A stretch of DNA of 32,000 bases from Candidatus Electronema aureum (GTDB lineage: Bacteria; Desulfobacterota; Desulfobulbia; Desulfobulbales; Desulfobulbaceae), in the NCBI GenBank assembly GCA_004284765.1, contig NQJD01000004.1, forward strand, positions 30,001 to 62,000, in the 5' to 3' direction. Positions within the stretch are counted from its first letter, which is position 1. Every line of letters begins with the position of its first letter. The translations under genes and the position numbers were made by a program. The notes under the pieces are model-generated. The model searched no databases, was not told where the DNA came from, and saw only the letters and a list, made by a program, of their open reading frames with translations. Below are positions 1,943 to 29,768 of the stretch, one piece after another.

Positions 1943-3130
1943 TTATTTTACTGGCTTAACTAACTTATCGACATAGACAAACGTAGCTTCGTCGCCTGTT
2001 TTCTCTATCTTGGTCAAATAAACCGCATCCATACCCCGGCGGTCGTCTGGGCCGAAAGAAACTGGAACACCGCCCGCATCGTAATGCGACAAAGATTCGA
2101 GCGAAGTTTTGATCGCCTCAGAAGTGACCTCGCCTTTAACATTCTTGACCGCCTGATGAAGAACGTTTGCTGCGATGTACGCCTCTAAGCTGATAAACTC
2201 ATATTTTTCCGCGCCCATATCCTCTTGATACTGCTTGACGATAGGCAGTGAAGCATCCCAAGGATCAGGAACAACTTGGCTGATATAGACGTTATCGCTT
2301 TCATTCAGCCGTTCTGCCAAGCCTCTTGAGCCAACAAAGGAAATGTTGAGCATCGGCACCTTGAAGCCCATCTTGTGCCACTGGTTGATGGCCAAAGCAC
2401 AAGACCTTGCCGTGCCAACTAAAATAACCGCCTCAGCCGCGTTACCCCTGATCTGTCGCACGCCGCCGCCCACAGAAACAGTGTTGCGTTTGTAGTGCGG
2501 CACGCTGTTCCAAAAAGTAGTCCAGTCCTCTGTCGCGGCATTGTCAGCAGGAATGGCTGGCACCTCTGGTACAATTTTGATGCCCCCCAATTTTTTTTCT
2601 GCTGCCACCGCGCCTTTGATACCGGTTAAACCGAAATCGTCGCGCTGGACAAAAATACTGACCCGCTTGATGCCCAAATCCTCTTTCAGGTGCCGCATCA
2701 TGTTTTCAATCTCGGCTCCGTAGCTGGCTCGTAGGGCAAAAGAGGAGGGATTTGCCACCGGATCGCTGAGAAACTCAGCACCAGTACTTGCACCAAAGAA
2801 AAGGGTCTTGCTCTCGTTCGCCAAAGGAACGGCAACTTTGGAAGTTGGGGTACCAAGATAACCGAACAACACCTGCGCACCGTCTTTGATGAACTCTTCA
2901 GTATTAGCCAGACAACGATCAGGCTCGTAGCCGTCGTCCTTGCTGGTCAGCACGATATCTTCAGCGGCCCGTTTATCAAAATAGGCTTTAGCACCTTTCT
3001 GGATTTCAGCACCGAGAAAAGCGGTCGGGCCGGTCAAAGCGGAAGACTGCCCCACTTTGACCGCCGCAACACCATGATCCGGCAAAAGCAGGCAGCAGGT
3101 TGAGAAAAGAATCCACAGCTTGAGTCTCAT
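1943..3130 (-). CDS. Orphan periplasmic substrate-binding protein, LivK / type-1 PBP (Peripla_BP_6-like)
   Basis: The family-typical N-terminus VKVGQSSALTGPTAFLGAEIQKGAKAYFDK and the overall length fit branched-chain amino acid/amide-type binding proteins. The ORF-track start at 3160 is a GTG. The ATG at 3130 has AAGGGA 6 nt upstream and gives the signal peptide MRLKLWILFSTCCLLLPDHGVAA. No ABC permease or ATPase gene is adjacent. Confidence 0.8.
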   Translation of the reverse strand: MRLKLWILFSTCCLLLPDHGVAAVKVGQSSALTGPTAFLGAEIQKGAKAYFDKRAAEDIVLTSKDDGYEPDRCLANTEEFIKDGAQVLFGYLGTPTSKVAVPLANESKTLFFGASTGAEFLSDPVANPSSFALRASYGAEIENMMRHLKEDLGIKRVSIFVQRDDFGLTGIKGAVAAEKKLGGIKIVPEVPAIPADNAATEDWTTFWNSVPHYKRNTVSVGGGVRQIRGNAAEAVILVGTARSCALAINQWHKMGFKVPMLNISFVGSRGLAERLNESDNVYISQVVPDPWDASLPIVKQYQEDMGAEKYEFISLEAYIAANVLHQAVKNVKGEVTSEAIKTSLESLSHYDAGGVPVSFGPDDRRGMDAVYLTKIEKTGDEATFVYVDKLVKPVK

Positions 3131-3166
3131 GTTTGTTCCCTTGTCAGTTGATCTTGTCACGGCTGA

Positions 3167-6100
3167 TTAGCGGCTTTCTTTTTCGAGCTTGAAGACGGCA
3201 ACGGCTTGGAGCATGTCGTCGCCCATTGCGGCCATCTCGCGCATGGAGATGGAAGCACCCATCGTCTCCTGAGCAGTTTCCAAGCTGACGCGCCCAATGT
3301 CAGTCATCTTGCTCGCCAGCGCGGCGGTGGTGTCAGCCTGCTCCTTAGAGGCTGAGGCCACGCCCTCAATCAGCTCCGCCACTTCGTTCGAGCGGGTGGT
3401 GATTTCCTCCAGCTTGGCCAGCGCGTTCTGCGACAGCTTAGTACCCTGAACAACTTCTTGGATACTCGCATCCATACTCACGCCGGCCTCGGTGATCTCG
3501 CCGAGAATGTTACGGATCAGAGTTTCGATCTGGCGCGTGGAAACGGCGGCCCGTTCAGCCAGACGCTGGATTTCCTCGGCAACAACTGCAAAGCCGCGTC
3601 CTTCCTCGCCTGCTGCTGCCGCTTGAATCGAGGCGTTCAAGGCCAAAATCGAGGTACGGTCAGAAATTTCGTTAATGGTACGGGCGAAATCGCTGATTTC
3701 CTGCGAGCTTTCACCCAGCCGCTTAATCGCGCGGGCGGTATTCTGGACGTTGCTACGGATAGCTTCCATAGAATGGCTGGTTTCACGTACCGCTGTCGCA
3801 CCGTCTTCAGCAACCTGGCTGGAAATCTTAGAAGTACCTGCTGATTGCCCGGCTTTTTCCGCAGCACCCCGGATTTCTGCGGTCAGCAAGCTAATCTTCT
3901 GTACTGCCTCGTTGAGCAGTTGCGATTGCGTGTTGTTCTGATCGGCCAGCTCTCCGGTCGAGGAGCTGAGGACGTTAGCGGTAGAGCCAACCTGTTCAGC
4001 AGAGTCCTTGATTCGGCGGAAAGCGCGGCCCAGCTCGTCGAGCATCATGTTGAGCGAGTCGGCCAAGGTACCGATAACGTCATCAGTAACGGTGGCTCGG
4101 ATGGTCAAGTCACCATCGGCTAACTGGGTGATTTCCTCCAGCAGTTGAATGATCGAGTTGTTCAGCTTGTCATGCTCTTCCTGCCGGGTCTGGATCAGGT
4201 TCTGGATCGTACCAGTCATGGTGTTGAAGTCACCAGCCAGACGACCCAGCTCATCCTTACTGGTTACTTTCGCCTGCATGCTGTAATCACCTTTTTCAAC
4301 CTTGCTCATGACCTGCACAATTTCCTTAACCTGCCGAGTCACGCCACCAGCAACCAGCAAACTGACCACCGCAATCAACGCTGCGGCTGAGAGAACAGTC
4401 ACGCCGATGATCTTCAGCAAGTTAGTTACTGGCTGATGCACGGCATCTTCACTCACCTCACTGATAATCGCCCATGTTAGGTCTTTATATTTAAACTGCG
4501 CCCAAGAGGACAACACGCTTTCGCCCGCACCGTTGACGATAATCTTGGTATTGTCTTTGCCAGACAACGCTTCTGTCACTGCCTCAGTTGCCACTTTGGC
4601 CTTCGGATTCAGCAGCGTTTTTTCTACACCGTATTTTTTGGCATTTGAGGATTCAGAACGCCAAAGATGATCTGAGCCGATCAGATAGGTGTCGGCAATT
4701 GCCGTCTCCGCACCGGTCTGATGCTTGGATCCCTCTTCAAAGCGGCTGCGAATGTCCATAACCGCGTTGATTTGGTCAATCGGTATCTGCAAGGCAGCGA
4801 ACATGATGATTTCTTGCTTGTTGCTCAGAATCGGCGCAACTAAGAAAGCAGCGGGTTTGTCGCCTGCGGGTGCATAAAAGTCATAGTCGCTGATGGCAAT
4901 TTCTTTACTCGTGACCGCTTTGGCGACTGTTCCACCGAAGTTGGTGTCCTTATACGGGCCACTCAGCATGTTGGTCAAAAAATCTGCCTGTTTTTTGGCA
5001 GAGTAAAAAATGTAGCCGTCCGGGTTAATCAGGTAGAGGTCAGGAAAGCCGTAATGGGCGGCCAGCTCGCTTAAATGGTCGGTTTCTTTATCCGCAACCT
5101 TCCGCTTGGGGGCTACGGCATCAGCCTGATCCAGATCAACGATCAGTACCCACGTGGTACCGTAGATTTCCACCGAGGTGTAGGAAGAAAGCACGTAGTC
5201 ACCGCGATAGTTGTTGGTTGTCTCCTCGCCGCTCTCGCCGGACAGGGCATAAACCACGCTCTCAGTATCGACGACGAAGGCTGGGTTGGCCAAGGTCGGC
5301 TCGGCAAAATAAGCAGAGTTGGAACGGAACATGCCGTCCACACCAACGAGGTACGATTCGCCTTTGTCGCCAAGTCCTGGAGGATTCTTGGTGATATCAT
5401 CCAAGGCATTGCCTTTTAGCCCGAACAAGAGTACGCCTTCCAACTTGCCCTCAATAGTAAAGGGGGTAGAAAAATAGGCCACCATCTTATCGGTATGTTC
5501 TGCATGAAAAGAAGAAGGAGAGTAATCAATAAAGGCAGTTTCTTGTATTCCTTTCTGCAAGGCATTCCATTCTGCGGTTTTCTCTTTAACCACCTCGCCT
5601 CGCGTCATATCCTTATCAGTGGAATACAGCACTTTACCATCAGGACTGAGTAGAACGAGGGCGGAAAAGTCTCGTTGTTCGAGCCAATTCGTCAGATACT
5701 CAGCAAAAGCACTATCCATCTCTGTCGAGGCATCTTTAATGAAGCCCGTGAACATCTTCTTCTGCTCAGGGTTATTCGCAAAAGCCTGTGTGTTCTGATA
5801 GCGCATCTGAAAGTAGTCGATGATTTGCTTTTTCTGCAAATCCCTGACTGCTGCTAATTTGATGTGCGCCTCATTCTGGAGAAGCTGCATAGTCTCTGAA
5901 ATATTTTTCAGAGTCTTTTCCTGCTCCGTGAAATACTGATGCAGGGCCTGATGCTGGAACGCCAAGGTGGTTTCCAAGTTTTCAAAGGACTGCTGCTGCA
6001 AGGCCGAGGCCGAATAGCGCCAGCTGAACAGCGCGATCACCGCCATCGGCACCAAAGAAATCAGGAGGAGCCAAAATAGCAGCTTGCCCTTGATACTCCG

Positions 6101-6187
6101 CCCTAACGTGAACAGGCCCTTCAGGTTAGCGGCCTTCAGGCGGCTAAGTATCTGCTCCGCCGCTTTTCTTTTCAACACGTTCGCCAT
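3167..6187 (-). CDS. Methyl-accepting chemotaxis protein with large tandem Cache-like periplasmic region, HAMP and MCP signalling domains
   Basis: GAGGAG lies 4-5 nt before ATG 6187. TM1 is [21 protein letters not shown] and TM2 is [28 protein letters not shown] segment: [21 protein letters not shown]. Signalling hairpin: [41 protein letters not shown]. Confidence 0.9.
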
Positions 6188-6226
6188 TTTTTCTCCTCTA
6201 TAACAAGAAAATTACCTGAAACACCC

Positions 6227-6751
6227 TTAAACCGCAGGCTCCGGCCATGCCGCAGGCGGGCAGAGCGTAGGCAGCAGATTTGGCACCATCATCATCCCGT
6301 CTTCGTGGGCAAATAATCCTTTGAATAGGGCAGGATCAAGCCCGCTTGCCTCTATCGCTGCGGCAGCACACTGTTTAGGCAACTCGCGGGCAGCAATCCG
6401 ATCGGAAACCTTGAGAATACAGCGTAACATCCGCCGAGAGCTGTTTTCCTTTTCGTCCTCAGCTGGAACAACAAGCCGTATCACCATATATAAACTGCGA
6501 TCAGCGGAGAAACTCATGCCATGTAGTTTGGCAATATCCACCACCGGCAGCACCTGCCGCCGCCAAGCGCACAGCCCCAGCAGCCAATCGGGTGCAAAAG
6601 GCAGGGGGCGTACCTCTACATCTTGGAGTATTTCCTCCACCTGCCGTGTGGCGAAGAGCAGCACTGGCTCTTGATCCAACACCTTTGCTCCGGTCAATCG
6701 CACAGCGACCGTTTTTAGGGCCGCTCGTTTTATTCCTTGTTCATCCGGCAT
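6227..6751 (-). CDS. Divergent CheW-like coupling protein
   Basis: CheW-like core: LLFATRQVEEILQDVEVRPLPFAPDWLLGLCAWRRQVLPVVDIAKLHG. The ORF track starts at 6802. The internal ATG at 6751 (MPDEQG...) overlaps the upstream stop by only 11 nt (ATGCCGGATGA) and is the more economical start. Confidence 0.7.
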   Translation of the reverse strand: MPDEQGIKRAALKTVAVRLTGAKVLDQEPVLLFATRQVEEILQDVEVRPLPFAPDWLLGLCAWRRQVLPVVDIAKLHGMSFSADRSLYMVIRLVVPAEDEKENSSRRMLRCILKVSDRIAARELPKQCAAAAIEASGLDPALFKGLFAHEDGMMMVPNLLPTLCPPAAWPEPAV

Positions 6752-7847
6752 GTTGTTCACCCGGCATTCTGCGGCCTGCGCTTTCTTGGCAACGCAAGAC
6801 AATCTGATCGATGAGATACTGAATGATGTTTTCGCTCAGACCCTTTTGCCGCACCATCTTGGCCAAATCGGGGGGCAGCTGCTCCATACTGAGATGCGGC
6901 TCCTCGCCTCCGGTCTTGCTTTGCTTGAAGCAAGCGATGGTCCACGTCATCACTTTTTTAAAAGTTTCTTCGTCAATAGAAGCGGCGGTTTCTTTTTTCT
7001 CTTGTTCCGAGATAGATTCTGATGATTCTTCTGTAGAGGTATCTTGTATATCATCGGCAACCGGCTCATCAAGCTCTTCTGATTCGAGTTCTGTTTCAGT
7101 AAATATTGATTCTTCGCTTTCAGGTAAATCAGAAGAATCATCAGAAGGGCAGACACAGAAATTTTCATCTACATTTTGATCAAGCAGGGCGGCGGATTCT
7201 TCAGCGTTTCCAGGTGAATTGCCGAAAGACTCCTCGTCCATCTCTTCTTTGGAAGATGCTTCTGTAGGCGCAACACCCTGTGGCTGTTCTATATCAATTA
7301 CAGATTCAACCAATTCTTCTTCAACCAGTTCCGTTTCAGCAAATATTGATACTTCGCTTTCAGGCAAATCAGAAGGGCAGTCAAAGAGGTCCGCCTCGCT
7401 ATTCTGTTCCGCGATGAGCGTTTCCTCCGCAGCAGCCAGCCTTCCGATACCATTGCCCAGCTCATCGGCAACCGGGATGATTTGAGCCGGATTGAGCAGC
7501 AGTACCGCCGAATCACCCCAAATTGTCACTTGTGGGCAAAGCCGAGCCGCCAAGCGCGGGCAAACAGGCGGCAGCGGGCCGGGCGGATTAATGACTTCCA
7601 CCTCGTCAGCGATAAGCTGGTCGGCTACGAGAAAAAAGGATTCGTCCTTTCCCCGCATCTCCAAACAGATCGCATCCGACTGCGGCTCTCCACCCGGTTG
7701 CTGGGCGAACAGCGCACTGAGCTGCACGATTTTGCTGTCTTGTTTGAGCAGCGAGGCTGCCTCGGCCCACGACATCCGGCCAATGATGTCGTGTTCAGCG
7801 ATACCCAGTAGAAAGCGGCCCGCTTGTGCTATACAGATTTTCTTCAT
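6741..7847 (-). CDS. CheW-like domain protein with acidic internal repeats and an unknown C-terminal helical domain
   Basis: The N-terminal ~130 aa have a CheW-like pattern (FLLGIAEHDIIGRM..., FFLVADQLIADEVEV). The central ~170 aa are extremely acidic, with the duplicated block DLPESE(V/E)SIF(A/T)ETEL. The C-terminal ~80 aa (KKVMTWTIACFKQ...LSENIIQYLIDQIVLRCQES) are not recognised. Confidence 0.65.
   Translation of the reverse strand: MKKICIAQAGRFLLGIAEHDIIGRMSWAEAASLLKQDSKIVQLSALFAQQPGGEPQSDAICLEMRGKDESFFLVADQLIADEVEVINPPGPLPPVCPRLAARLCPQVTIWGDSAVLLLNPAQIIPVADELGNGIGRLAAAEETLIAEQNSEADLFDCPSDLPESEVSIFAETELVEEELVESVIDIEQPQGVAPTEASSKEEMDEESFGNSPGNAEESAALLDQNVDENFCVCPSDDSSDLPESEESIFTETELESEELDEPVADDIQDTSTEESSESISEQEKKETAASIDEETFKKVMTWTIACFKQSKTGGEEPHLSMEQLPPDLAKMVRQKGLSENIIQYLIDQIVLRCQESAGRRMPGEQHAG
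7087..7389 (-). repeat. In-frame direct repeat inside the acidic CheW-like gene (two ~60-70-nt copies offset by 240 nt)
   Basis: AGTTCTGTTTCAGTAAATATTGATTCTTCGCTTTCAGGTAAATCAGAAG (from 7087) matches AGTTCCGTTTCAGCAAATATTGATACTTCGCTTTCAGGCAAATCAGAAG (from 7327). The first copy carries a 12-nt insertion. Confidence 0.8.
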
Positions 7848-7869
7848 AATTTCGAGCTACGCCGTCGCT

Positions 7870-10800
7870 TCATTCGTTCATCTCCACCGCAATACGCCCG
7901 GAGATCATACTGCGAATGAGTTCAACAGCCTCATCTTCTTTGAAGGGTTTCGTCATGAAACCGCGTGCACCGAGCTGGGATGCTTTTTCACGGTATTTGT
8001 CCGCGCTGCGAGAAGTAAGCATGACCACTGGAATATCTTGGAATTCTGGCTGACTTTGCAAGGCTTGTAGCACTTCAAAACCATTCATACGTGGCATTTC
8101 CACATCCAGCAGCACGAGGTCAGGTTTTTCTTCGCGGATACGCTCCAAGGCTTCAATACCGTTGCGAGCAATAGTCGGCTGCCAGCCATGCTGAAGGAGG
8201 AAGTTAGACACGACCTTACGCACGCTGATTGAGTCATCGACCACCAGCACTTGGATTGGCCTTTCCTCGGTTTGCGGTTGTACTTCTGTAACAAACTCTG
8301 TTTCAGCCGACGGCGCAGTCAATTGTGCCCATTTTTTCAATAAATCATCGATCTGAAGAATGGGAATCAAACTACCGTCACCCATAATGGTCACGCCCGC
8401 GATGCAGGCTACGTTGCTCAGATGACTGCCCAAATCTTTGAAAACGATATCGCGCTGGCCGATGATTTGTTCGCAGAGCAAAGCAGCCCGCCTGCTGCCA
8501 ACGTGGACGGCAAGTACAGCCAGCTCGCTTTCCGGCAGGGCCTCGCCTGAAACACCAACCTGAAAGCCGGGGATAGCCGCTGGATTGAGCAACGGCAACT
8601 TTTTGCCGTCAACCTCGCATTCGTTAGCAACTATGTCTTCGGGTCGCACTCTGGCTGCGCTACTGATGTCGTGCATCGGCACGGCGTAGGTTTGGCCAGC
8701 CAAGCGCACAAGTACCGCATGAAGCTGGGCCACAGCTACGGGTAGCCGGATGAGCAGCTCCAGCCCCTTACCTCTGGGCGAGAAAATTTCAATTGAACCG
8801 TTGAGCAGCTCGACCGAATCGCGCACTACGTCCATGCCCACGCCGCGACCCGCAATGCTGCTGATCGACCCGGCGCTGGAGAAGCCATGCCGAAAAATCA
8901 GCGTGGCTAACTTCTCATCGCTCATACTATCGATGCGCTCGTGAGGATAAAGCGTCATACCTTTAATGCGGATAGCTTCGTAATTCAAGCCCTTACCGTC
9001 GTCCTTGATCCGCAGAGAAAACTGACCGCCCCGTCGTTCGGCTTTAATCCGCACGGTCAGCTGTCGCTCCGAGCTACCACCGTGAGCTACTGAGTTGCGG
9101 AGGATGTGCATGAGCGCGTCGGCCATCGTGTCCCAGACGCGAGTGTCCATCATGATCGACTCGCCGTCAATAATCAGCTGGGCTGGATGGCCGGTGCTGC
9201 GTTCGGCCTCGCGCAGAGTGCGTTGCATCCGGGCGGAGAGCACAGAAAGCGGTGTCATCCGCAAGCCGATCATTTTATTCTGAATGTCCTTCAGAACCCG
9301 CGCCTGCCGCTCGACCGTTCTTTCCCAAGCGATGTTTTCCAACGCGCTCTGGGCCATGATTGAATCAAGGTCGCTGACCGCCTCGCTCAGAGAGCGAATA
9401 AGGATGTTCAGCTCAGAATAGCGATCCATCTCCAGCGGATCGAAGTCCTCAGTGAGGCTACCACTGTCGGTATCACTCATGCCGCGCAGATAGGGGATAG
9501 TTGCCAGCTCGTAGCCTGTTTCTAAGCTATGGTTGATGCTTTTCAGCCGTTGGAGAATCATACCCAGCTCATTGAGGGTACCAGACATGGCTGACATGGA
9601 TGCCTCAAAGCTGCTCAGGTTGATGACCATGTCGCCACTCAGACCAACCACTTGGTCAATCCGGCTGATATCGACGCGCAGCGTGTTGATTCTGCGCACT
9701 CCGGTATGTTGTTCTTGAACTGGAGGCGGTGGCGGTGGTGGCGCGGCAGGAGTAGGCTCTGTTACTGAAGCAATAGGTTCTGCTGAAACAGCAGGCAACG
9801 GCGCAGGTGCGGGTTCTTCGGCATCGATAACGGTAACAGGCTCGGCAGCAGCAACCTGCGGCTGTGTTTTTTCGCTTGCGATGATTTTACGAAATCGCTC
9901 TACTACCGCTTCCTTTTTTTCAGTCACCGGCACCGCAGGATTTTCAGTGATACGCACCAGCAGATCGGCACCTTCCTGCATGGCCGCTACATCTTCTGAG
10001 TGCAAAACCGGCGATTCATCATGGAGCCAGTCAAGGAAGTCCTCAAACTCATGTCCCCACGCCGCCACCGGTTCAATGCCGATTACCGCTGCCGCGCCTT
10101 TCAGCGTATGCACCGAACGGCGGAGTGAATGCAAATTCTCCCGCAGCGGCTCTGAGAGCGCGGTCTCATCGTCCACGCCAGCGGCCAGCTCTTTCAGCTG
10201 TTGGTCGATGTTTTCTAAATGCTCCGCTGCTTCCTCGTTGAAGCATTGCATCAACTCAGGATCAATGGCCTGAATTGTATCCTCAGCTACAGGTTCCGTC
10301 ACCGAAGCTGAGGCAAACAGGCTATCATTATTGTCTTCAGCAGCGGGAAAAAACTCCTCATCACCTGCGGATACGTCATCGAGCTGCGGCTCAACGGCAA
10401 AAAGTTGCTCCTCAGCCGAATCAGCGGTGGGGAACAGTTCAAATTGCTCCGTTGCCCCAGTTTCGCACGGTTCTTCTTCCGCAAAAAAAACATCCACCGT
10501 TGCTGCGGAAGGCAGGTCAGCCGTTTCCGGCTGCGCAGCAAAGGCGGACGCAACTACAGGCGTGGCCATGATTTCCCGGAACCGAGTCACAGCGACTTGC
10601 TTATCTTGCTCCAGCGAAATGGTTGGTTGGTCGGCTATCCTCGCCAAAATATCCGCGCCTTCCTGCATGGCGGCCACGTCTGATGGGTGCAGCACCGGCG
10701 ATTCATCATGGAGCCAGTCAAGGAAGTCCTCGAATTCATGCCCCCAAGCGGCTACAGGCTTGATGCCAATCACCGCCGCCGCGCCTTTCAAAGTATGCAC

Positions 10801-12567
10801 GGAGCGGCGGAGTGAATGGAGATTTTCCCGCAGCGGTTCAGACAGCCGAGTTTCGCCGTCCACCCCAGCGGCCAGTTCCTTTAGCTGCTGGTCGATGTTC
10901 TCTAAATGCTCTGCCGTCTCTTCGCTGAAGCATTCCAGTAGCTCAGGATCAATGGCCTCATCTTCCTCTTCAGCCGACTCAGGAGCGGCGGCAAACAAGT
11001 CTTTGGCATCAGGCAGCTCATCAAAGAGCGAAGCCTCAGTCTCGTCGTTTGGCTCTTCAGCAAAAAAGTCGGCTTCACGTTCTTCAGCAGCACATACGTC
11101 CGCGACCGGCAGTTGCTCAGTCTGCGCCGCCATAATTTCCCGAAAGCGGAGGGCAGGAGACTGAACTTCCTGCTTTTCTGTTGTGGCTGGTGAAAAAACA
11201 ACGGAAATTGCATCTCCGTCGAAATTGGGAAAAAGACCTGTGCGGTTGCTTTCTTCAGAAGTGGAATCCGGCGGCGAGAACAACTCGTCAAACAGGTTTG
11301 TAGCTGAACTGTTGGCTTGTTCTTCAGCAAAAAGCTCGTCAGCAGGAAGGGAAATTTTCGGTTCTGCGCTGTCAGCGGGCGGAGCTGCCGCCTCTTCTTC
11401 AACAGTTTGAAACAAACCGCTGTCTTCCGCAGAAGCATCATCGGAGAACAACTCGTCAAAGAGGACTGCTGACGAGCTGACGTCCGTTTTTTCGGCAAAA
11501 AAATCTTCAACCTCAGAGGCAAAAGCCTGATCAACGGTTTCAGGCGGCGCAGCCTCCGGCTCAACTTCCGCCGCTGGCTCAAGTTCAGTCCCGCTTTCCT
11601 CCCTGATGACGCGGAATTGCTCTGCTGCTGCCCGCTGTTCCTCTGCAAAAACGCAGGTTGCGTCTTCAGCTAAAACTGCCAGCACGTCACGCCCGTCATG
11701 AACAGCGGCCAAGGCCTGCGGGTGCAAGACAGGAGCTTCATCATGCAGCCAATCGAGGAAATCCTCAAACTCGCGGCCCCACGCTGCCACTGGCTCAATG
11801 CCAATCACTGCCGCCGCGCCTTTCAAGGTATGCACAGAGCGACGTAACGAATGAAGACTCGCGCGCAGATCGTCGGAGAGCGGGGTTTTGTCGATAACAG
11901 AGGCAGTCAGCTGCTTGAGTTGCTGATCAATGTTATCCAGATGCTCGGTTGCCTCCTCGTTGAAGCAGGCCATCAGCTCAGGATCAATGGCGTATGCTAC
12001 TGGAACAGACGTTGTTCCCTCATGCTCTTCGAGATTTTCGTTAAGCAGGAAAACCTCTTCCACTTCCCCCTCGTTGACAGAGAGTAGTTGCTCAAGAATC
12101 CCGGCGATGGAATCTTCATCAGCACCGACTGGCGGCTCTTTTTCAGCAGGCGCATCGTCGCGTTCCGGCGGAAGATCACGGTGTTTTGCCTGAAAAGCGG
12201 CCAACGTTTCCTGATGCAACAGGGTACTACCGCCCTGTTTTTCCACGCTCCGTAAGGTGCAGAAAGCATCAATCCGCTGTATCGTATCGCTGAAAAGTGA
12301 AATCAGCTCATCGTCCATAATCAGCGCAGATTCAAGCACCTTGTCCATGACCTGTTCCAGCAGTCCACCGGTCTGGCTCAAATCATCAAAACCCACCATC
12401 GCGGCGGCACCCTTGATGGTATGAACCATACGATGTAGCTCGGCAGCGGCCTCGCTGTTGTCCCGGTCTTTTCTCAGTGTTTGCAGACAGCCGCGCATTA
12501 GGGGCAAATACCCTTCCACCTCGCTCAGGAATTCAGCTGCGATTTCATTGGCCGACGTATCGTCCAT
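7870..12567 (-). CDS. ChpA-like hybrid CheA histidine kinase: 4 x Hpt, dimerisation, HATPase, CheW-like and C-terminal receiver domains
   Basis: AAGGA lies 8 nt before ATG 12567. Hpt1 is LHRMVHTIKGAAAMVG. Three further Hpt domains carry LHSLRRSVHTLKGAAAVIGI. N-box HILRNSVAHGG, G1 IKDDGKGL, G2 GRGVGMDVV. The CheW-like P5 region is followed by a receiver (VLVVDDSISVRK...LLDVEMPRMNGF...TKPF). Confidence 0.95.
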   Translation of the reverse strand: MDDTSANEIAAEFLSEVEGYLPLMRGCLQTLRKDRDNSEAAAELHRMVHTIKGAAAMVGFDDLSQTGGLLEQVMDKVLESALIMDDELISLFSDTIQRIDAFCTLRSVEKQGGSTLLHQETLAAFQAKHRDLPPERDDAPAEKEPPVGADEDSIAGILEQLLSVNEGEVEEVFLLNENLEEHEGTTSVPVAYAIDPELMACFNEEATEHLDNIDQQLKQLTASVIDKTPLSDDLRASLHSLRRSVHTLKGAAAVIGIEPVAAWGREFEDFLDWLHDEAPVLHPQALAAVHDGRDVLAVLAEDATCVFAEEQRAAAEQFRVIREESGTELEPAAEVEPEAAPPETVDQAFASEVEDFFAEKTDVSSSAVLFDELFSDDASAEDSGLFQTVEEEAAAPPADSAEPKISLPADELFAEEQANSSATNLFDELFSPPDSTSEESNRTGLFPNFDGDAISVVFSPATTEKQEVQSPALRFREIMAAQTEQLPVADVCAAEEREADFFAEEPNDETEASLFDELPDAKDLFAAAPESAEEEDEAIDPELLECFSEETAEHLENIDQQLKELAAGVDGETRLSEPLRENLHSLRRSVHTLKGAAAVIGIKPVAAWGHEFEDFLDWLHDESPVLHPSDVAAMQEGADILARIADQPTISLEQDKQVAVTRFREIMATPVVASAFAAQPETADLPSAATVDVFFAEEEPCETGATEQFELFPTADSAEEQLFAVEPQLDDVSAGDEEFFPAAEDNNDSLFASASVTEPVAEDTIQAIDPELMQCFNEEAAEHLENIDQQLKELAAGVDDETALSEPLRENLHSLRRSVHTLKGAAAVIGIEPVAAWGHEFEDFLDWLHDESPVLHSEDVAAMQEGADLLVRITENPAVPVTEKKEAVVERFRKIIASEKTQPQVAAAEPVTVIDAEEPAPAPLPAVSAEPIASVTEPTPAAPPPPPPPVQEQHTGVRRINTLRVDISRIDQVVGLSGDMVINLSSFEASMSAMSGTLNELGMILQRLKSINHSLETGYELATIPYLRGMSDTDSGSLTEDFDPLEMDRYSELNILIRSLSEAVSDLDSIMAQSALENIAWERTVERQARVLKDIQNKMIGLRMTPLSVLSARMQRTLREAERSTGHPAQLIIDGESIMMDTRVWDTMADALMHILRNSVAHGGSSERQLTVRIKAERRGGQFSLRIKDDGKGLNYEAIRIKGMTLYPHERIDSMSDEKLATLIFRHGFSSAGSISSIAGRGVGMDVVRDSVELLNGSIEIFSPRGKGLELLIRLPVAVAQLHAVLVRLAGQTYAVPMHDISSAARVRPEDIVANECEVDGKKLPLLNPAAIPGFQVGVSGEALPESELAVLAVHVGSRRAALLCEQIIGQRDIVFKDLGSHLSNVACIAGVTIMGDGSLIPILQIDDLLKKWAQLTAPSAETEFVTEVQPQTEERPIQVLVVDDSISVRKVVSNFLLQHGWQPTIARNGIEALERIREEKPDLVLLDVEMPRMNGFEVLQALQSQPEFQDIPVVMLTSRSADKYREKASQLGARGFMTKPFKEDEAVELIRSMISGRIAVEMNE
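9966..10270 (-). repeat. Hpt module copy C (4th Hpt) of a three-copy in-frame tandem paralogue set
   Basis: It aligns by eye with 10653-10957 at a constant offset of 687 nt (229 codons). It encodes AIDPELMQCFNEEAAEHLENIDQQLKELAAGV...HTLKGAAAVIGIEPVAAWGHEFEDFLDWLHDESPVLH. Confidence 0.85.
10653..10957 (-). repeat. Hpt module copy B (3rd Hpt)
   Basis: Same unit as copy C. The protein sequence is almost identical to copy C across the Hpt core, while many third codon positions differ. Confidence 0.85.
11688..11992 (-). repeat. Hpt module copy A (2nd Hpt)
   Basis: Offset 1035 nt (345 codons) from copy B. It encodes AIDPELMACFNEEATEHLDNIDQQLKQL...HTLKGAAAVIGIEPVAAWGREFEDFLDWLHDEAPVLH. It is more diverged at nucleotide level than B is from C. 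Confidence 0.8.
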
Positions 12568-12599
12568 CTGCTTGTTCCTTCATGGGTTGAGGGCTGGCT

Positions 12600-13184
12600 T
12601 CATTGCAGCCTGATCGAAGAGAGCAGCTTGCTGCCGTCAAAAAGCTCCAGCTCGTGTTCGCCGTTTTCTGCTAAAAACAAAGCCGAGCCGCTGATAAAAT
12701 CAACTGGAACCGCTGCCGCGTCGAGGTGTTTCATCCCCTCTTTACGGTAAAGCAGACGAGTGCCGGTAATTTTATCGACTATGGCTGCTGTCTTCATGCC
12801 TTTTTCATGCAGAATGATGACCGTCCTGCCTTTTTTGGGAATTTTCTCGGTAATTTTGAACAAAACCGCAAGATTGGTGACAGAGACAATCTCACCCCGG
12901 AGATTCGTCACGCCTTCAGACCAACTTGGTAAAAAAGGCAAAGGCCGCACTGTTTCTAATTCACCGACCTCAATTACTAAAGACAGAGGCACAGCGAGAT
13001 GCTGCCCGGCCAGCGTGAAGCAAATGTGCCGACCGATTTCAGTCAGCGTTTGCGCTGAACCGGAATCATCTGTTAGCTGCTGCTCGCGGCGCAGTTCCTC
13101 AGCGATCTCCTGATCAATGCCAGACAGTAGCGCGGTTAAGACCACATCCGCGCTGCTGGTCTCTTGTTGGGCGGTCATGCCCAC
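12600..13184 (-). CDS. cheW: CheW coupling protein (PilI-like position)
   Basis: CheW pattern: HICFTLAGQHLAVPLSLVIEVGELETVRPLPFLPSWSEGVTNLRGEIVSVTNLAVLF. The start is either GTG 13184 or ATG 13178, 8-14 nt after the upstream stop. Confidence 0.85.
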   Translation of the reverse strand: MGMTAQQETSSADVVLTALLSGIDQEIAEELRREQQLTDDSGSAQTLTEIGRHICFTLAGQHLAVPLSLVIEVGELETVRPLPFLPSWSEGVTNLRGEIVSVTNLAVLFKITEKIPKKGRTVIILHEKGMKTAAIVDKITGTRLLYRKEGMKHLDAAAVPVDFISGSALFLAENGEHELELFDGSKLLSSIRLQ

Positions 13185-13192
13185 GGTCCGGC

Positions 13193-13558
13193 TCAGGCGA
13201 GTAGGCCGGTGACTGCTTTCAGCAGTTCAGCCGGGTCAAAAGGCTTGGTCAAATAAACCTCTGCACCCTGCTTCTTGCCCCAGAACTCATCGGATTTCTG
13301 ATTTTTACTGGTGAGCAGGATGATCGGGATGTTCTGAAGATCGGGCGTAGATTTGATCGTCCGGCACGCCTGAAAGCCGTTCATTTTTGGCATGACCACG
13401 TCTAAAATGATCAAATCAGGCTTTTCAGCAGCCGCCTTAGCCACGCCTTCTTCACCATCTATTGCGGTCACAACCGCATATTCTGGGCCGCTGAACACAT
13501 CAATGATCAGCTTCAATTCAGTGGGGCTGTCATCAACTATCAGCAATTTTTTAGCCAT
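13193..13558 (-). CDS. Single-domain response regulator, PilH/PixH-type CheY
   Basis: AGGA lies 6 nt before ATG 13558. Receiver motifs are LLIVDDSPTE and LIILDVVMPKMNGF. The tail LLTSKNQKSDEFWGKKQGAEVYLTKPF matches the SK-Q-x-D-x-FWG-x-KQGA-x-Y-x-TKPF signature I associate with PilH/PixH. Confidence 0.9.
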   Translation of the reverse strand: MAKKLLIVDDSPTELKLIIDVFSGPEYAVVTAIDGEEGVAKAAAEKPDLIILDVVMPKMNGFQACRTIKSTPDLQNIPIILLTSKNQKSDEFWGKKQGAEVYLTKPFDPAELLKAVTGLLA

Positions 13559-13621
13559 GTTCGTTCCTTTCTTTTCAACGTTAGAGGTTCAAAGTTTCAC
13601 GCACGAGATTTTTTCAACTTC

Positions 13622-15466
13622 TCAACTGACCGACGTTTCCGTTGATTTTGCCCCTTCAGGCGCATTTTTATCAAGGATACTGTTGACCACATTGATCAGC
13701 TCCGCTGGTTTGAAGGGTTTGGTCAGATAAGCACTGGCAGCGGAAAGATGGCCCTTCACCTTGTCGAGTATCCGATTTTTACTGGTCAGCATGACCACAG
13801 GAATATCCTTGGTCTCACCATTTTTCTTGAGAATCGACAGGAGTTTGTAGCCATCAATCTTGGGCAGCATGATGTCCAACAGTACCATGTCAGGCCGATC
13901 ATCGTTGAGCTTGCTCAGAGCCTCTACCCCGTCTACCGCCTCAATCACCCGGAAACCGCCGCTCTGAAGGGTCATCTTGATTACCTTGCGAGTGGTAGGG
14001 CTGTCTTCCACGACTAATACCGTTTTTTTATCGGTCTGATTGTCAATTACCTGTCTTTCTTTCTTGAACTGCTGCGCCGACGAAGTCGGCGTACTCCGTT
14101 CCTCTATTTTCTGGTTAGAGGCGATATAATCGACAATCTGTCCTACCTGCTCTGATACCTTTTGATAGCGGCTATCTACCTGAATGATCGGCATCAGCAG
14201 ATCAAAATAGGTCAGAGCCTTATCAAAATCGTTCAAATTGAGATACGCCGCGCCGGCATAGAAAAGAATCTTTGGATTCACTTCAGCAGCTAACACTTTT
14301 TCAAAACGTCCGGCAGCTTGGAGAATTAACCTCCGATCAACTGCATAAGGATCAATCTTGGCTAATGCCGAGGACTCAGTCAGCAAACTGGCCTTACAGC
14401 AAATGCAGGCCGGAGCTTGGTGTTCCAGCGGTGCGTAGCAAAAGGGACAGCGGATGATCTTGGCTTCGGCAGCTGCGCTGTTGAGTAGGCGAGCTTTCTC
14501 GACATCCTCTAAAATATCGGCATGTTCTGGTTCAAGCCGGTAGGCTTCTGCCAGCGCAGTCTTAATTTTTTTTGGCTCAGTCACCGCCCGCGACAGCCAA
14601 AGCCAGCCCAAAGCATTCTTGCGGTTTTCTTTAACAAAAGCCATCAGTGGCTTCTGCGCTTGGACGAATTCTAACCGCTCGCAGAGTCGGATACCCTCGT
14701 CGAGCAGTTTTTGCTGCTGTGGTTCCTCGCCGCCATCCTCTTCCTCACCGCACTGATGATCCTTCTGAATCATGGCATTGATGAGCAGGTTTTGATTGCT
14801 TTTATGCACCCGCCGGATGATATTTTTATCTAAAAGGCAACTGCTAACCTGCACGCCCTCCATACTTAAAAGTTTGAGCGCAGCTTCCTCGCCAACCAGC
14901 TTGCCGCAGATTGCATCGTAGATCGTACCTTGGACAAGGAACAGACTGCCCCGGAACTCCTTGCAGTTCTGCTCGATGCACTGATTCATGTCGTGGTGAT
15001 CGCTGCTTTTATGGACATCAAGGCGGCAGGTGGTGCCTTCTGTTTCCATCAGCTGGACAATACCCACCACCGAAAATTCGCCCAAATCGCTCTTTTTTTG
15101 CTGTGTTTTGAGGCCACGAAGAATCGCATCCGCCAGCTCCTGCGACATCACCGGCTTTTTGAACATCTGAAAAACCTTGCCAGACAGTCGTTCTTGGAGT
15201 TCAGGTAGCTCGTAGGAGGTGATAACGATGCAGGGAATCTCAGGATGTTTTTCGTAAATATGCGCGAGCAGCTGAAAGCCATCGCCACCAGGCATGACAA
15301 TGTCAGTAACGATTAAGGCAATGTCGTCATCACGTTCCAAGGCAGCCGCTGCATTTTTGATGTCAAAGGCATGAACGAGTTCAAAAATGCTGCTGTACTT
15401 ACTTAACGTGGAATTGATCAGCTCGTGAATGACATGATCATCATCGACCAACAGTACTTTCTTCAT
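13622..15466 (-). CDS. Dual-receiver regulator: REC - PATAN/DUF4388 - TPR-like/zinc-ribbon - PilG-like REC
   Basis: AAGGA abuts ATG 15472 and lies 6 nt before ATG 15466, so MKKVLLVDDD is the likely start. REC1: VLLVDDDHV...IVTDIVMPGGDGF. DUF4388-like: GEFSVVGIVQLMETEGTTCRLDV...GSLFLVQGTIYDAICGKLVGEEAALKLL. Zinc ribbon: CPFCYAPLEHQAPACICC. TPR-like: FYAGAAYLNLNDFDKALTYF. REC2: VLVVEDSPTT...LLDIMLPKIDGY...MLTSKNRILDKVKGHLSAASAYLTKPF. Confidence 0.85.
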   Translation of the reverse strand: MKKVLLVDDDHVIHELINSTLSKYSSIFELVHAFDIKNAAAALERDDDIALIVTDIVMPGGDGFQLLAHIYEKHPEIPCIVITSYELPELQERLSGKVFQMFKKPVMSQELADAILRGLKTQQKKSDLGEFSVVGIVQLMETEGTTCRLDVHKSSDHHDMNQCIEQNCKEFRGSLFLVQGTIYDAICGKLVGEEAALKLLSMEGVQVSSCLLDKNIIRRVHKSNQNLLINAMIQKDHQCGEEEDGGEEPQQQKLLDEGIRLCERLEFVQAQKPLMAFVKENRKNALGWLWLSRAVTEPKKIKTALAEAYRLEPEHADILEDVEKARLLNSAAAEAKIIRCPFCYAPLEHQAPACICCKASLLTESSALAKIDPYAVDRRLILQAAGRFEKVLAAEVNPKILFYAGAAYLNLNDFDKALTYFDLLMPIIQVDSRYQKVSEQVGQIVDYIASNQKIEERSTPTSSAQQFKKERQVIDNQTDKKTVLVVEDSPTTRKVIKMTLQSGGFRVIEAVDGVEALSKLNDDRPDMVLLDIMLPKIDGYKLLSILKKNGETKDIPVVMLTSKNRILDKVKGHLSAASAYLTKPFKPAELINVVNSILDKNAPEGAKSTETSVS

Positions 15467-15760
15467 GTGCATTCCTTACGCGTTGCCGCATCAGTCCGCA
15501 GATGCCGCTGTTCAAATCGGTTCAAAAAGTAAGCAAGAGAAAGTCCGCTCCGGAGGATTTTTTCAGTATATGCACAGGACAAAGGCAGGCGCATTTCCAA
15601 GCACAACAAGGAAATAGTTTGCGGGTAAAAAATTGCAGGGCAGACGCACATTTTTTCCTTCTGCTGCATAAAAGCGGAACCGGAATACAGGCCAGCGCAT
15701 TGTTTATGCAGAATAGCCCCGCTCTCCCCGTAGGAAGACCTCCGATCAGGAAATTTTTCC

Positions 15761-15790
15761 ATCTTAAATAGGTTGGGGTAGTTTTGTCAA
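15761..15790 (-). promoter_or_regulatory. Candidate sigma70-type promoter for the chemosensory operon
   Basis: On the minus strand: perfect -35 TTGACA (15790-15785), an 18-nt spacer, then TAAGAT (15766-15761). This would give a ~280-nt leader. Only sequence resemblance supports it. Confidence 0.2.
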
Positions 15791-15914: not shown

Positions 15915-15951
15915 GGAAAAAACAATTCTTTGAGAATCATTCTCAAAGAAT
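15915..15951 (-). terminator. Rho-independent terminator after trpS, insulating it from the chemosensory operon
   Basis: Perfect 13-bp inverted repeat ATTCTTTGAGAAT (15925-15937) / ATTCTCAAAGAAT (15939-15951). On the minus strand it is followed by TTGTTTTTTCC. Confidence 0.75.
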
Positions 15952-24471: not shown

Positions 24472-25311
24472 TCAGCTCAAGGCTACGTCTAAAATCATCA
24501 TTAAGGTAAATCCCATCATAGTTGCCATAGTTGCTAAATCGATATTTTCATATTGCCGCTGCGACTCTGGGATTAGCTCTTCTACCACCACAAAAATCAT
24601 CGCTCCAGCGGCAAAACAGAGGGCAAAGGGCAGAATGCTCTGGAGTTGCAGAACAAATAAAGCACCAGCAACGGCGGCAATTGGCTCAACCATGCCGGAA
24701 AGCTGACCGAGAAAAAAACTTTTCCCTCGCGACATTCCCTCTCTTCTTAAAGGCAGGGCCACTGCTGCGCCTTCAGGAAAATTTTGCAAGCCTATACCAA
24801 TGGCCAAAGCGATTGCACCGCCGATGGTCGCGGCAGGCAGTCCAGCAGCGACTGCACCAAAAGCCACCCCGACCGCAAGTCCTTCTGGAATATTGTGTAG
24901 GGTGATGGCCAGCACCAAGAGTGTGCTGCGCTGGAGAGAGGTTTTGATACCCTCCTTTTTCTCCATTTCTAATCCCGGATGCAGGTGGGGCAAAAATTTA
25001 TCAATCAAACGCATGAAAATGCCGCCACCCATGAAGCCGACCGCTGCTGTCAGCCAAGGAATCTGACCCATCTGCTCTGCCATCGCGATTCCTGGGGCAA
25101 GCAAAGACCAGAAGCTCGCAGCAGTCATCACTCCAGCGGCAAAACCGAGCATAGAATCCATCAATCGGTTATCGACGTTTTTGGTCAAAAAAACTATTGC
25201 TGCTCCGGCGGCAGTAACGGCCCAAGTGAAAAGCGTGGCGGCAAGGGCTTGGCTGACGGGATGATGCTCAAGGAACGTGGTCATTGCTGGCGCAGAATTC
25301 GTTTCCGCCAA
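24472..25311 (-). CDS. ZIP family divalent metal transporter (ZupT/GufA-like)
   Basis: Multi-pass membrane protein with [15 protein letters not shown] and [17 protein letters not shown]. An alternative start, ATG 25284 (MTTFLEHH...), forms an ATGA overlap with the upstream glycosyltransferase stop. Confidence 0.9.
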
Positions 25312-27446: not shown

Positions 27447-27459
27447 GAGAATGTACTTT

Positions 27460-28752: not shown

Positions 28753-28761
28753 ATTTTTACT

Positions 28762-29562: not shown

Positions 29563-29601
29563 TGCATCGTGACTTGCGGCAATTTCATTTCATTTTTTTG
29601 T

Positions 29602-29754: not shown

Positions 29755-29768
29755 AGTGTTGTCTCCTT

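Follow-up and report, generated by a model that had tools for sequence, protein, structure and literature searches.

The regulator gene and its operon

The window, i.e. the whole stretch of 32,000 nucleotides of Candidatus Electronema aureum DNA analyzed here, contains a tightly spaced cluster of eight genes on the minus strand, which is headed by a gene for a multidomain response regulator (13622..15472). One uninterrupted minus-strand frame spans the whole regulator ORF, with 616 codons counted from the ATG at 15472 in the ORF list and translation. The likely start is the second ATG, at 15466, which gives a predicted protein of 614 amino acids. The sequence AAGGA is located six bases upstream of this ATG, and the database copy of the regulator (P0001) also starts there and has 614 amino acids. 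A previous inspection of the same DNA from its letters alone, hereafter the sequence-only reading, had given the same length, which fits this start, and the peptides quoted in it (GIVQLMETEGTTCRLDV..., LFLVQGTIYDAICGKLVGEEAALKLL and CPFCYAPLEHQAPACICC) were all found in the regulator translation. The sequence-only reading named no strand; the plus strand of 13622-15472 gave a stop-rich translation only, so the gene was assigned to the minus strand.

The other genes of the cluster are all encoded on the same strand. The regulator gene is followed by a single-domain CheY at the position of PilH/PixH (13193..13558; Pfam Response_reg, 95 bits), a CheW (12600..13184; Pfam CheW) and a CheA-type kinase of 1565 amino acids (7870..12567), for which Pfam identified four Hpt domains, a dimerisation domain, HATPase, CheW and REC. 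Next is a conserved operon protein of 368 amino acids (6741..7847), which showed no match in Pfam or NCBIfam and has homologues at the same operon position in two related loci (L085 and L081). The cluster is completed by a second CheW-like protein (6227..6802; partial match to Pfam CheW), a chemoreceptor of 1006 amino acids with two HAMP domains and an MCP signalling domain (3167..6187; Pfam) and, as the last gene, a periplasmic binding protein (1943..3160; Pfam Peripla_BP_6). With a multi-Hpt hybrid CheA carrying a REC domain, two regulators, two CheW proteins and one MCP, the cluster fits the Pil-Chp/Tfp gene set based on the Pfam assignments.

The regulator gene is preceded by a gap of 489 bp, and its previous description as the first gene of the operon was confirmed. 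Consensus scans of the minus strand within this gap identified a promoter-like site (15761..15790; TTGACA, an 18-nt spacer and TAAGAT) and, just after the upstream tRNA-synthetase gene, a terminator-like hairpin followed by a T run (15925..15951), both of which are weak evidence because such counts do not exceed those of shuffled controls. An ORF of 99 codons in the leader (15463-15762) does not resemble the small ORF that precedes a relative and was treated as spurious. The Rfam search of the window, including the 489-bp leader, gave no match.

We inspected the operon at seven loci (the window, L081, L082, L084, L085, L086 and L087). In all seven, the regulator leads a cheY-cheW-cheA(Hpt...REC)-containing cluster with at least one MCP, although one distant member differs in gene order. 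The single-domain CheY directly follows the regulator in the window, L081, L084, L085 and L086, and is located further downstream in L082 and L087. CheB is found near the relatives in L084 and L087. Neither the 32-kb window nor the flanks of 10 kb around the six related loci contained a pilus gene.

Domain architecture of the regulator

The regulator consists of an N-terminal receiver (REC1), a PATAN domain, TPR-like helices, a CxxC-x10-CxxC zinc ribbon, a second set of TPR-like helices and a C-terminal receiver (REC2). The domain calls of the sequence-only reading were all upheld: both receivers are complete, PATAN is present and carries an insertion with Cys and His, and the protein contains TPR-like helices as well as a ribbon with four Cys. 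Pfam matched Response_reg twice, with 147 bits in total and the best stretch at residues 485-596. The AlphaFold2 model of the full protein, built from an alignment of 23 sequences (mean pLDDT 80), starts with REC1 (residues 1-123), which is followed by an alpha/beta domain (135-244). Six helices (252-336) lead to short strands (339-362) and to a second helical stretch (367-460), which a disordered linker connects to REC2 (484-602); the arrangement of the domains relative to each other is unreliable in this model (pTM 0.41).

REC1 (residues 3-123; 15104..15466) was identified by Pfam Response_reg and by a (beta-alpha)5 fold in the AlphaFold2 model. Its signature appears intact, with D10-D12, the acceptor D57, S86 and K106-P107 at canonical positions. 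REC2 (residues 482-604; 13661..14029) covers model positions 1-110 of the 111 in Pfam over residues 485-596, and its active site consists of E489-D490, D533, T563 and K585, which are kept in nearly all of 99 homologues (exceptions P0067 and P0093). Since the acceptor Asp is present in both domains (D57 and D533), neither is predicted to be a pseudo-receiver. REC2 is the most conserved domain of the regulator, with 65–70% identity between distant members, as compared to 34–41% for the other domains between members from cable bacteria and elsewhere. That REC2 is by far the best conserved fits a conserved docking partner, such as a kinase.

The PATAN domain (DUF4388, PatA_N; residues ~129-246; 14735..15088) has an alpha/beta fold in the AlphaFold2 model, and its PF14332 score of 32.0 bits exceeds the gathering cutoff (25), so that the previous assignment was borne out by a profile HMM. 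Owing to a lineage-specific insert, only positions 3-74 of the 122 in the model were matched; insert-free homologues matched positions 2-121 of 122 over the same segment, with 44–61 bits, and precomputed matches to PF14332 were available for nearly all homologues of the regulator. A search of PDB sequences with the middle region of the regulator gave nothing significant and no solved PATAN relative. Foldseek with a model of the middle region did not place the PATAN fold, as all matches were TPR proteins.

The insert, shown here as residues 155-172 (14957..15010), is a loop between the first two PATAN strands and adds a net 14 residues with the motif H154-x4-H159-x5-C165-x4-C170. It was present in all 35 Electronema and Electrothrix sequences that cover the region and absent from every other homologue. 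The only invariant residues within the insert are H159, C165 and C170, and the flanking C149, H154 and C189 are likewise invariant; the confidence of the AlphaFold2 model is low at the insert. It is conceivable, although we regard it as quite improbable, that this insert specific to cable bacteria, which has C149 and C189 close by, provides the output domain with a site that binds metal or senses redox changes. The output of the regulator would in that case respond directly to the cellular redox state in addition to receptor-driven phosphorylation, for example upon loss of the electrical connection to oxygen, and the insert would tie gliding behaviour to long-distance electron transport at the molecular level.

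The first TPR-like block (residues 250-336; 14465..14725) was recognized from helix pairs in the AlphaFold2 model and TPR matches in Foldseek. It contains the motif WLW-SR, in which W292, S294 and R295 are invariant and W290 and L291 are conserved in at least 90% of the sequences. The second block (residues 366-456; 14105..14377) gave sub-threshold Pfam matches to TPR_19, TPR_2 and TPR_16 at residues 377-439, in addition to the Foldseek matches, and the corresponding segment of the homologue P0136 scores above the cutoffs (TPR_2, 32.8 against 27; TPR_1, 29.3 against 27.8). With the model of the middle region alone (pLDDT 85), the best 50 PDB matches were all TPR proteins, including consensus TPR, Pex5, MamA and PilF/PilW, at an E-value of about 1e-3 and with low TM scores (0.17–0.25).

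Between the two blocks, the segment RCPFC-x10-CxxC (residues 339-362; 14387..14458) has the two knuckles on short strands expected of a zinc ribbon and was assigned as such from its cysteine conservation and the strands in the AlphaFold2 model. No zinc-ribbon model was matched in the Pfam scan of the regulator. The cysteines C342, C345, C356 and C359 are kept in 98 of 99 homologues, including forms without REC1, the exception being P0087 with Tyr at C359. The second TPR-like block is connected to REC2 by a disordered linker (residues 457-481; 14030..14104) with pLDDT below 50 and an identity of only 10–12% between distant members.

Distribution of the family and its cassettes

More than 100 homologues share the full architecture, and every named member belongs to Thermodesulfobacteriota. 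The nearest named relatives are from Candidatus Electronema, with 84–86% identity. At 50% identity, the family was divided into 31 clusters with the full layout and 23 clusters without REC1. The architecture is thus not a one-off oddity, but that of a conserved Thermodesulfobacteriota family. Full-text literature searches retrieved no paper describing the regulator of this operon, although it may be mentioned elsewhere. The variant is real, conserved and undescribed in the literature searched.

The two halves of the protein also occur apart from each other. REC1-PATAN proteins without any REC2 were identified (P0247, P0255, P0263 and P0241), and this unit was also seen fused to GAF, Roadblock/LC7 or unknown C-terminal regions. 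Conversely, the TPR-zinc ribbon-TPR-REC2 unit occurs without PATAN. The short-form relatives consist of PATAN-TPR-zinc ribbon-TPR-REC, and thus come nearer to the bipartite layout of PatA-type regulators, with the spacer still present. Sequence comparison thus indicates that the regulator joins two separable cassettes, REC1-PATAN and TPR-zinc ribbon-TPR-REC2. REC1 is accessory, as it is absent from the short forms, and the recurrence of the REC1-PATAN cassette in other fusions speaks for an action of REC1 on PATAN. Long forms were mixed with short ones in a neighbour-joining tree built from the region common to both; as a tree that carries no support values, it only hints at repeated gain or loss of REC1. 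The relative P0255, with the layout REC1-PATAN-Roadblock/LC7, echoes an association of PATAN with MglB that has been reported (PMC4316618).

A scan of species-representative genomes with the family alignment gave at least 600 matches, of which only seven loci (L001-L007) were informative, and it is not a complete taxonomic census because the patterns fall in the generic receiver. Cyanobacterial PatA-type comparators were sought among the scan loci; those recovered were instead RpaB/OmpR-type regulators or an unrelated lone CheY beside nitroreductase and PBP genes. A PATAN-only profile run against a set of 5.8 billion proteins identified two proteins, one a fragment with REC-PATAN and the other with FHA-PATAN, using a word index that is too strict for a divergent domain.

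Proposed role in a pilus-type chemosensory pathway

How chemotaxis-like signals reach the type IV pilus motor is best understood for PatA-type regulators, which have been treated as a cyanobacterial speciality. Like PixG, PilG/TaxP, PixE and PatA, the regulator combines PATAN with a C-terminal receiver with an intact acceptor Asp, and is encoded by the first CheY-like gene of a chemotaxis-like operon that continues with a single-domain CheY, CheW, hybrid CheA and MCP. The window operon contains no CheR/CheB-type adaptation enzymes (PilK/ChpB), and cyanobacterial PatA-type clusters likewise have no CheR or CheB. The differences are that PatA-type proteins are bipartite, with an N-terminal PATAN directly followed by one REC, whereas PATAN is internal here and placed after REC1; that about 235 residues of TPR-zinc ribbon-TPR, rather than a short linker, separate PATAN from REC2; that PATAN contains the His/Cys insert in the cable-bacterial copies; and that the host belongs to Thermodesulfobacteriota, whereas the literature calls this type of regulator "typical for cyanobacteria".

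The Pil-Chp system of Pseudomonas aeruginosa similarly has two CheY-like regulators heading the operon, a PilI-like CheW, a PilJ-like MCP and a ChpA-like kinase with several Hpt domains and a terminal receiver, whereas its PilK/ChpB-type adaptation genes have no counterpart in the window cluster. The JGI automatic annotation labels homologues of the regulator "PilG", but PilG of P. aeruginosa is a bare receiver without PATAN, TPR or a second receiver, and the NCBIfam search of the regulator gave no equivalog match. Other PATAN architectures (PATAN alone, PATAN-GspE_N, FHA-PATAN and PATAN genes beside MglA/MglB) also use the domain as a portable interaction module linked to pili or polarity, but lack the TPR-zinc ribbon-TPR-REC2 half and do not lead che clusters.

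FrzZ of the Myxococcus xanthus Frz pathway, a chemosensory pathway of a gliding "deltaproteobacterium", also carries two Asp-bearing receivers on one polypeptide. It consists of REC, a short linker and REC, with no further domain. The regulator is set apart from FrzZ by its architecture, in which the receivers flank the output domain and belong to separable cassettes. REC1 and REC2 are only 35% identical over 86 residues, and about 360 residues of PATAN, TPR and zinc ribbon separate the two. None of the operon's other receivers is more similar to REC1. The identity, the spacing and the separate cassettes do not bear out the previous suggestion that a FrzZ-like dual receiver had been fused to a PatA-like output.

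We consider it probable that the protein is the principal output regulator of a pilus-type pathway (Pil-Chp or cyanobacterial Tax-like) in a gliding cable bacterium, and thus a counterpart of PixG and PilG. The domains, the intact phospho-acceptor sites of both receivers, the conservation, the two cassettes and the surrounding operon were observed here, whereas the transfer of phosphoryl groups, the target of PATAN and an effect on motility are inferred by analogy. The chemoreceptor would control the CheA-type kinase, and the Hpt domains would relay phosphoryl groups to D533 of REC2. Phosphorylated REC2 would then release PATAN, and perhaps also the adjoining TPR/zinc-ribbon scaffold, for binding to the type IV pilus motor or to polarity factors, which would decide whether and in which direction the cells of the filament pull. 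The neighbouring single-domain CheY may act as an antagonist or a phosphate sink. REC1, which directly precedes PATAN in an evolutionarily independent REC-PATAN cassette, could serve as a second phosphorylation-dependent gate on PATAN, so that two phospho-signals would be integrated on one polypeptide.

In the Tax operons of Synechocystis, the first CheY-like gene encodes a PATAN-REC protein; PixL phosphorylates both PixG and PixH, only phosphorylated PixG localises to the leading pole, and PixH is antagonistic. The PATAN domain binds PilB1 and PilC and suffices as an output, which is known for Synechocystis only (PMC11181946; bioRxiv 10.1101/2021.06.11.447907). PilG and PilH of P. aeruginosa act antagonistically (PMC10519157). 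Gliding and oxygen taxis are known from cable bacteria, which also encode pili of type IVa (PMC10580974, PMC12163305, PMC12449579), although it is unsettled whether pili drive their gliding (PMC10580974, PMC12163305). The lack of pilus genes in the window and around the related loci counts against the proposed role.

In cable bacteria and related sulfate reducers, a conserved chemosensory operon is thus headed by a more elaborate relative of the PatA-type regulators. The regulator is a testable candidate for how uncultured gliding filaments find oxygen and position themselves between oxygen and sulfide, with D57, D533, the zinc-ribbon cysteines and the His/Cys loop of cable bacteria as experimental handles. 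The two reusable cassettes, REC-PATAN and TPR-zinc ribbon-TPR-REC, suggest a mode of gating PATAN outputs. The advance is incremental, as all domains and the operon logic are already known.

The main alternative concerns REC1, which may belong to the same pathway but provide no signalling input. It would then be a phosphate sink, or else a receiver that is structural or degenerate and only adjusts pathway kinetics, as do the receiver at the C-terminus of CheA-type kinases and extra CheY proteins elsewhere. REC1 is evolutionarily dispensable, as seen from the clusters that lack it and from the interleaving of long and short forms in the neighbour-joining tree, and it is less conserved than REC2. 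The acceptor D57 is kept in nearly all long-form homologues but replaced by Cys in P0057, P0071 and P0073 and by Gly in P0082. The absence of REC1 from many members and the replacement of its Asp in a few suggest that its role may be modulatory rather than that of a true second input. The kinase has four Hpt domains in cable bacteria only and two in relatives outside this group, both with REC1 (L081 and L084) and without it (L082); the number of Hpt domains is thus independent of REC1, in line with a sink, and the link drawn in the sequence-only reading between four Hpt domains and the extra receivers fails. On the other hand, all five signature residues of REC1 are present in every cable-bacteria sequence, among which the identity of REC1 is 73%, and the domain stays joined to PATAN in the four proteins without REC2, which is not expected of a pure sink for the kinase of this operon. 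We therefore regard a REC1 without signalling input as possible but rather doubtful.

It is less likely still that the pathway controls a process other than motility, such as patterning related to cell division or the septum, or polysaccharide secretion, with PATAN and TPR docking non-pilus partners. Outputs of PATAN are not restricted to pili, because PatA itself, the founding PATAN-REC protein, controls heterocyst patterning and not motility, and orphan PatA-type regulators have roles beyond pilus control (bioRxiv 10.1101/2021.06.11.447907). In other bacteria, either development or the formation of biofilms is governed by chemosensory systems with CheA-REC fusions (PMC2577667). Cable bacteria themselves grow as multicellular filaments, and the operon adjoins Wzz/Wzy/Poly_export genes in Electrothrix scaldis. 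However, the genes beyond the operon are not conserved among the inspected loci, the same operon is found in taxa not annotated as cable bacteria (e.g. MAGs labelled Desulfocapsa and Desulfoluna), and the gene order G-H-I-(L)-(J) mirrors that of pilus-taxis operons.

Although both halves exist elsewhere as separate protein types, there is next to no chance that faulty assembly or annotation produced the long ORF by joining neighbouring REC-PATAN and TPR-REC genes, a fusion that the sequence-only reading had itself considered, since the frame is uninterrupted in the window, the same full-length single ORF recurs across many species in long contigs as well as complete genomes, including records of 2.9–5.1 Mb and amounting to 106 long forms, and the helices of the AlphaFold2 model run continuously across the junction.

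Architecture of the regulator and its active sites

The regulator gene at 13622–15472 on the minus strand is a single ORF of 616 codons; the plus-strand reading of this interval is filled with stop codons and was rejected. All peptides quoted in the sequence-only reading were found in the minus-strand translation, and its length of 614 aa agrees with the second ATG at 15466, which follows AAGGA by six bases and is the start of an identical database protein (P0001, 614 aa). Pfam identified two Response_reg domains (147 bits together), a DUF4388/PATAN domain (PF14332; 32.0 bits versus a cutoff of 25) and sub-threshold TPR matches at residues 377–439, while NCBIfam indicated generic receiver similarity and nothing more.

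The AlphaFold2 model of the full protein (23-sequence alignment, mean pLDDT 80, pTM 0.41) displayed an N-terminal receiver, REC1 (residues 1–123), a disordered hinge, an alpha/beta domain (135–244), six helices (252–336), short strands (339–362), further helices (367–460), a disordered linker (457–479) and a C-terminal receiver, REC2 (484–602). A second model of residues 125–480 (pLDDT 85, pTM 0.64) matched TPR proteins only in the PDB, namely consensus TPR, Pex5, MamA and the pilus-biogenesis proteins PilF/PilW, with E values near 1e-3 and TM scores between 0.17 and 0.25. Since all matches were TPR proteins at low TM scores, the helical region is, as modelled, TPR-like but irregular. At the position equivalent to the regulator's TPR match, the homologue P0136, in which a histidine-kinase ATPase domain is added to the same architecture, exceeds the Pfam cutoffs for both TPR_2 and TPR_1. 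A PDB sequence search identified no solved structure related to PATAN or the middle region.

The proposal of two full receivers was upheld by the signature residues, and neither receiver is degenerate by sequence. REC1 has the acidic cluster D10–D12, acceptor D57, S86 and K106-P107, and REC2 has E489-D490, acceptor D533, T563 and K585. The zinc ribbon (ZnR) has the motif C342-x2-C345-x10-C356-x2-C359, of which all four cysteines are kept in 98 of 99 homologues, the exception being P0087 with Tyr at C359.

All 35 Electronema and Electrothrix sequences covering the region carry 14 additional residues in the loop between strands 1 and 2 of PATAN. The insert was found in no other homologue, including the closest relative outside the cable bacteria (P0038, 54% identity), and explains why the PF14332 alignment covers only model positions 3–74 in the window protein, as compared to 2–121 in insert-free relatives. 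Only H159, C165 and C170 are invariant inside the insert, with D161, I162, I166 and E167 nearly so; C149, H154 and C189 are invariant in its flanks, and most Electrothrix copies have an extra Cys at position 156. Because His and Cys are invariant within an otherwise variable loop, the pattern may be the signature of a putative metal-binding or redox-active ligand set, and the PATAN output of cable bacteria is possibly metal- or redox-responsive. AlphaFold2 confidence was low at the insert.

Two cassettes and an accessory receiver

Among named relatives, response regulators of Candidatus Electronema (84–86% identity) and Candidatus Electrothrix (about 67%) are closest, which assigns the window to a cable bacterium. 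Full-length homologues of 560–620 aa, with identities down to 32%, were identified in Desulfobulbus, Desulfocapsa, Desulfococcaceae, Desulfobacteraceae and other Thermodesulfobacteriota, and another group, about 460 aa in length, has no REC1. A search with the middle region only, against all proteins of a 1.84-billion-sequence representative library, yielded 197 clusters with E <= 1e-3, of which 80 reach E <= 1e-10. We typed 150 listed proteins from this search using HMMs trained on the domains of the family itself. Among these, 31 were of the form REC-PATAN-TPR-ZnR-TPR-REC, 23 had the same order without REC1, and at least 12 were TPR-ZnR-TPR-REC without PATAN; the others include less common combinations and fragments. 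Examples without PATAN are complete proteins encoded on long contigs (P0175, P0201) and a protein of one Chloroflexota genome (L007). Seven proteins combine REC1-PATAN with a different C-terminus, which in those checked was GAF (P0247), Roadblock/LC7 (P0255) or unassigned (P0263, P0241). The MglB-like Roadblock/LC7 fusion is reminiscent of the genomic link reported between PATAN and MglA/MglB (PMC4316618). Thus the regulator is best viewed as a REC1-PATAN cassette joined to a TPR-ZnR-TPR-REC2 cassette, both of which also occur separately.

In a neighbour-joining tree computed without support values from the shared region of 111 sequences, long and short forms, with and without REC1, are interleaved, and D57 is replaced by Cys or Gly in four long forms. 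Identity between cable-bacterial and other members is 65% for REC2, 39% for REC1, 34% for PATAN, 35–36% for the TPR blocks and 10% for the linker. REC1 is 35–37% identical to REC2 and to the adjacent CheY over 86–88 residues, and 28% identical to the kinase receiver over 101 residues. Since these three receivers are closer to one another than to REC1, the comparison argues that REC1 is an old, distinct, accessory receiver and not a recent duplicate.

Operon context

The regulator is followed on the same strand, with gaps of 6–63 nt, by genes for a single-domain CheY (121 aa), CheW, a CheA-type kinase (7870–12567, minus strand; 1565 aa, with four Hpt domains plus dimerisation, HATPase, CheW and REC domains), a 368-aa protein (6741–7847, minus strand), a second CheW, a HAMP-MCP (1006 aa) and a periplasmic binding protein. 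The eight-gene cluster (1943–15472, minus strand) contains neither CheR nor CheB, as in cyanobacterial Tax systems; CheB is nearby in some distant relatives (L084, L087). The same operon, likewise headed by the regulator, occurs in L085 (Electrothrix scaldis), L086 (a contig of Desulfocapsa type) and the related loci L081 and L084, and variants of it lie next to a regulator of the short form in L082 and next to a distant one of the long form in L087. No type IV pilus genes are adjacent in the window locus or in L081, L082, L084, L085, L086 and L087.

The sequence-only reading tied the four-Hpt kinase to the extra receiver. This link fails, because CheA of relatives outside the cable bacteria has two Hpt domains (about 960–1090 aa), both alongside regulators that carry REC1 and alongside those that lack it. 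CheA of Electrothrix scaldis has 1694 aa, and the expansion (1565–1694 aa) is a cable-bacteria-specific enlargement of the phosphorelay. The 368-aa protein, without a Pfam or NCBIfam match, is an uncharacterised, operon-specific component. Its position is filled by similar sequences in L085 (18017–18769) and L081 (16083–16832) and, by position alone, by an unannotated 253-aa gene in L086 (16214–16975); about 135 N-terminal and 80 C-terminal residues are conserved around a variable middle.

A 489-bp gap separates the regulator gene from the upstream tRNA-synthetase gene and contains a hairpin resembling a terminator as well as a promoter-like TTGACA-18-TAAGAT, with site counts not above those of shuffled controls; the leader 3' of this site would be about 290 nt. 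Rfam had no match anywhere in the window. A 99-codon ORF in the leader (15463–15762, minus strand), overlapping the regulator start, is unlike the small upstream ORF of a relative and was rejected as probably spurious. The neighbourhood is not conserved, since the operon in L085 adjoins genes for polysaccharide chain length and export that are transcribed divergently (3226–8175; Wzz/GNVR, Wzy_C, Poly_export), whereas the upstream neighbours in the window are the tRNA synthetase and RsmB.

Comparison with pilus-taxis systems

Chemotaxis-like operons of Synechocystis have PATAN-REC as their first CheY-like gene; PixG and PixH, the latter a single-domain protein, are both phosphorylated by the kinase PixL, phospho-PixG alone reaches the leading pole with PixH as antagonist, and PATAN binds PilB1 and PilC and is sufficient as output (PMC11181946; bioRxiv 10.1101/2021.06.11.447907). 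PilG and PilH of P. aeruginosa follow the same antagonistic logic (PMC10519157). Starting from the observed anatomy, intact sites, conservation, cassette structure and operon context, we infer by analogy a mechanism from phosphotransfer onward. The CheA-type kinase would pass phosphate to REC2, which would free PATAN for contact with polarity factors or the motor of the pilus and perhaps release the TPR/zinc-ribbon scaffold for this too, with the adjacent CheY as the predicted antagonist. REC1 may be a second phosphorylation-dependent gate on the PATAN output, because it travels with PATAN in evolution.

The regulator is thus predicted to work like PatA-type regulators but falls outside their strict definition, an N-terminal PATAN followed directly by one receiver. 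The suggested FrzZ-like dual receiver was not borne out, the architecture being unlike that of FrzZ, and the likeness to PilG is confined to operon position and automatic annotation. The authors of the study on PATAN and pili call PatA-type regulators typical of cyanobacteria and note that, of over 8000 DUF4388 proteins, the majority carry either one REC or no further domain (bioRxiv 10.1101/2021.06.11.447907). In the literature searched, we found no description of the dual-receiver TPR/zinc-ribbon form or of the regulator of the cable-bacterial operon. It is assembled from known parts and its role is predicted by analogy, yet it is real and conserved, and a useful handle on cable-bacterial taxis. 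Cable bacteria glide, halt in oxygen and move again when oxygen drops, and in one video-based observation a filament moved more after its contact with oxygen was cut; type IVa pili are encoded by cable bacteria, although the gliding motor is not established (PMC12449579, PMC10036481, PMC10580974, PMC12163305).

Other genes were observed near the operon. Upstream on the same strand (24472–31219, minus) lies a run of ordinary envelope genes; their products are a ZIP zinc transporter, a large glycosyltransferase, an ABC polysaccharide exporter of the Wzt/Wzm type and a protein resembling GDSL lipases. On the opposite strand, some 3 kb away from the operon, an unusual 424-aa ORF (18691–19965, plus) fuses the N-terminal half of cytochrome bd oxidase subunit I (PF01654, model positions 5–230 of 418) to a c-type cytochrome domain at the C-terminus (PF13442), and may bear on oxygen handling in the cable bacterium.
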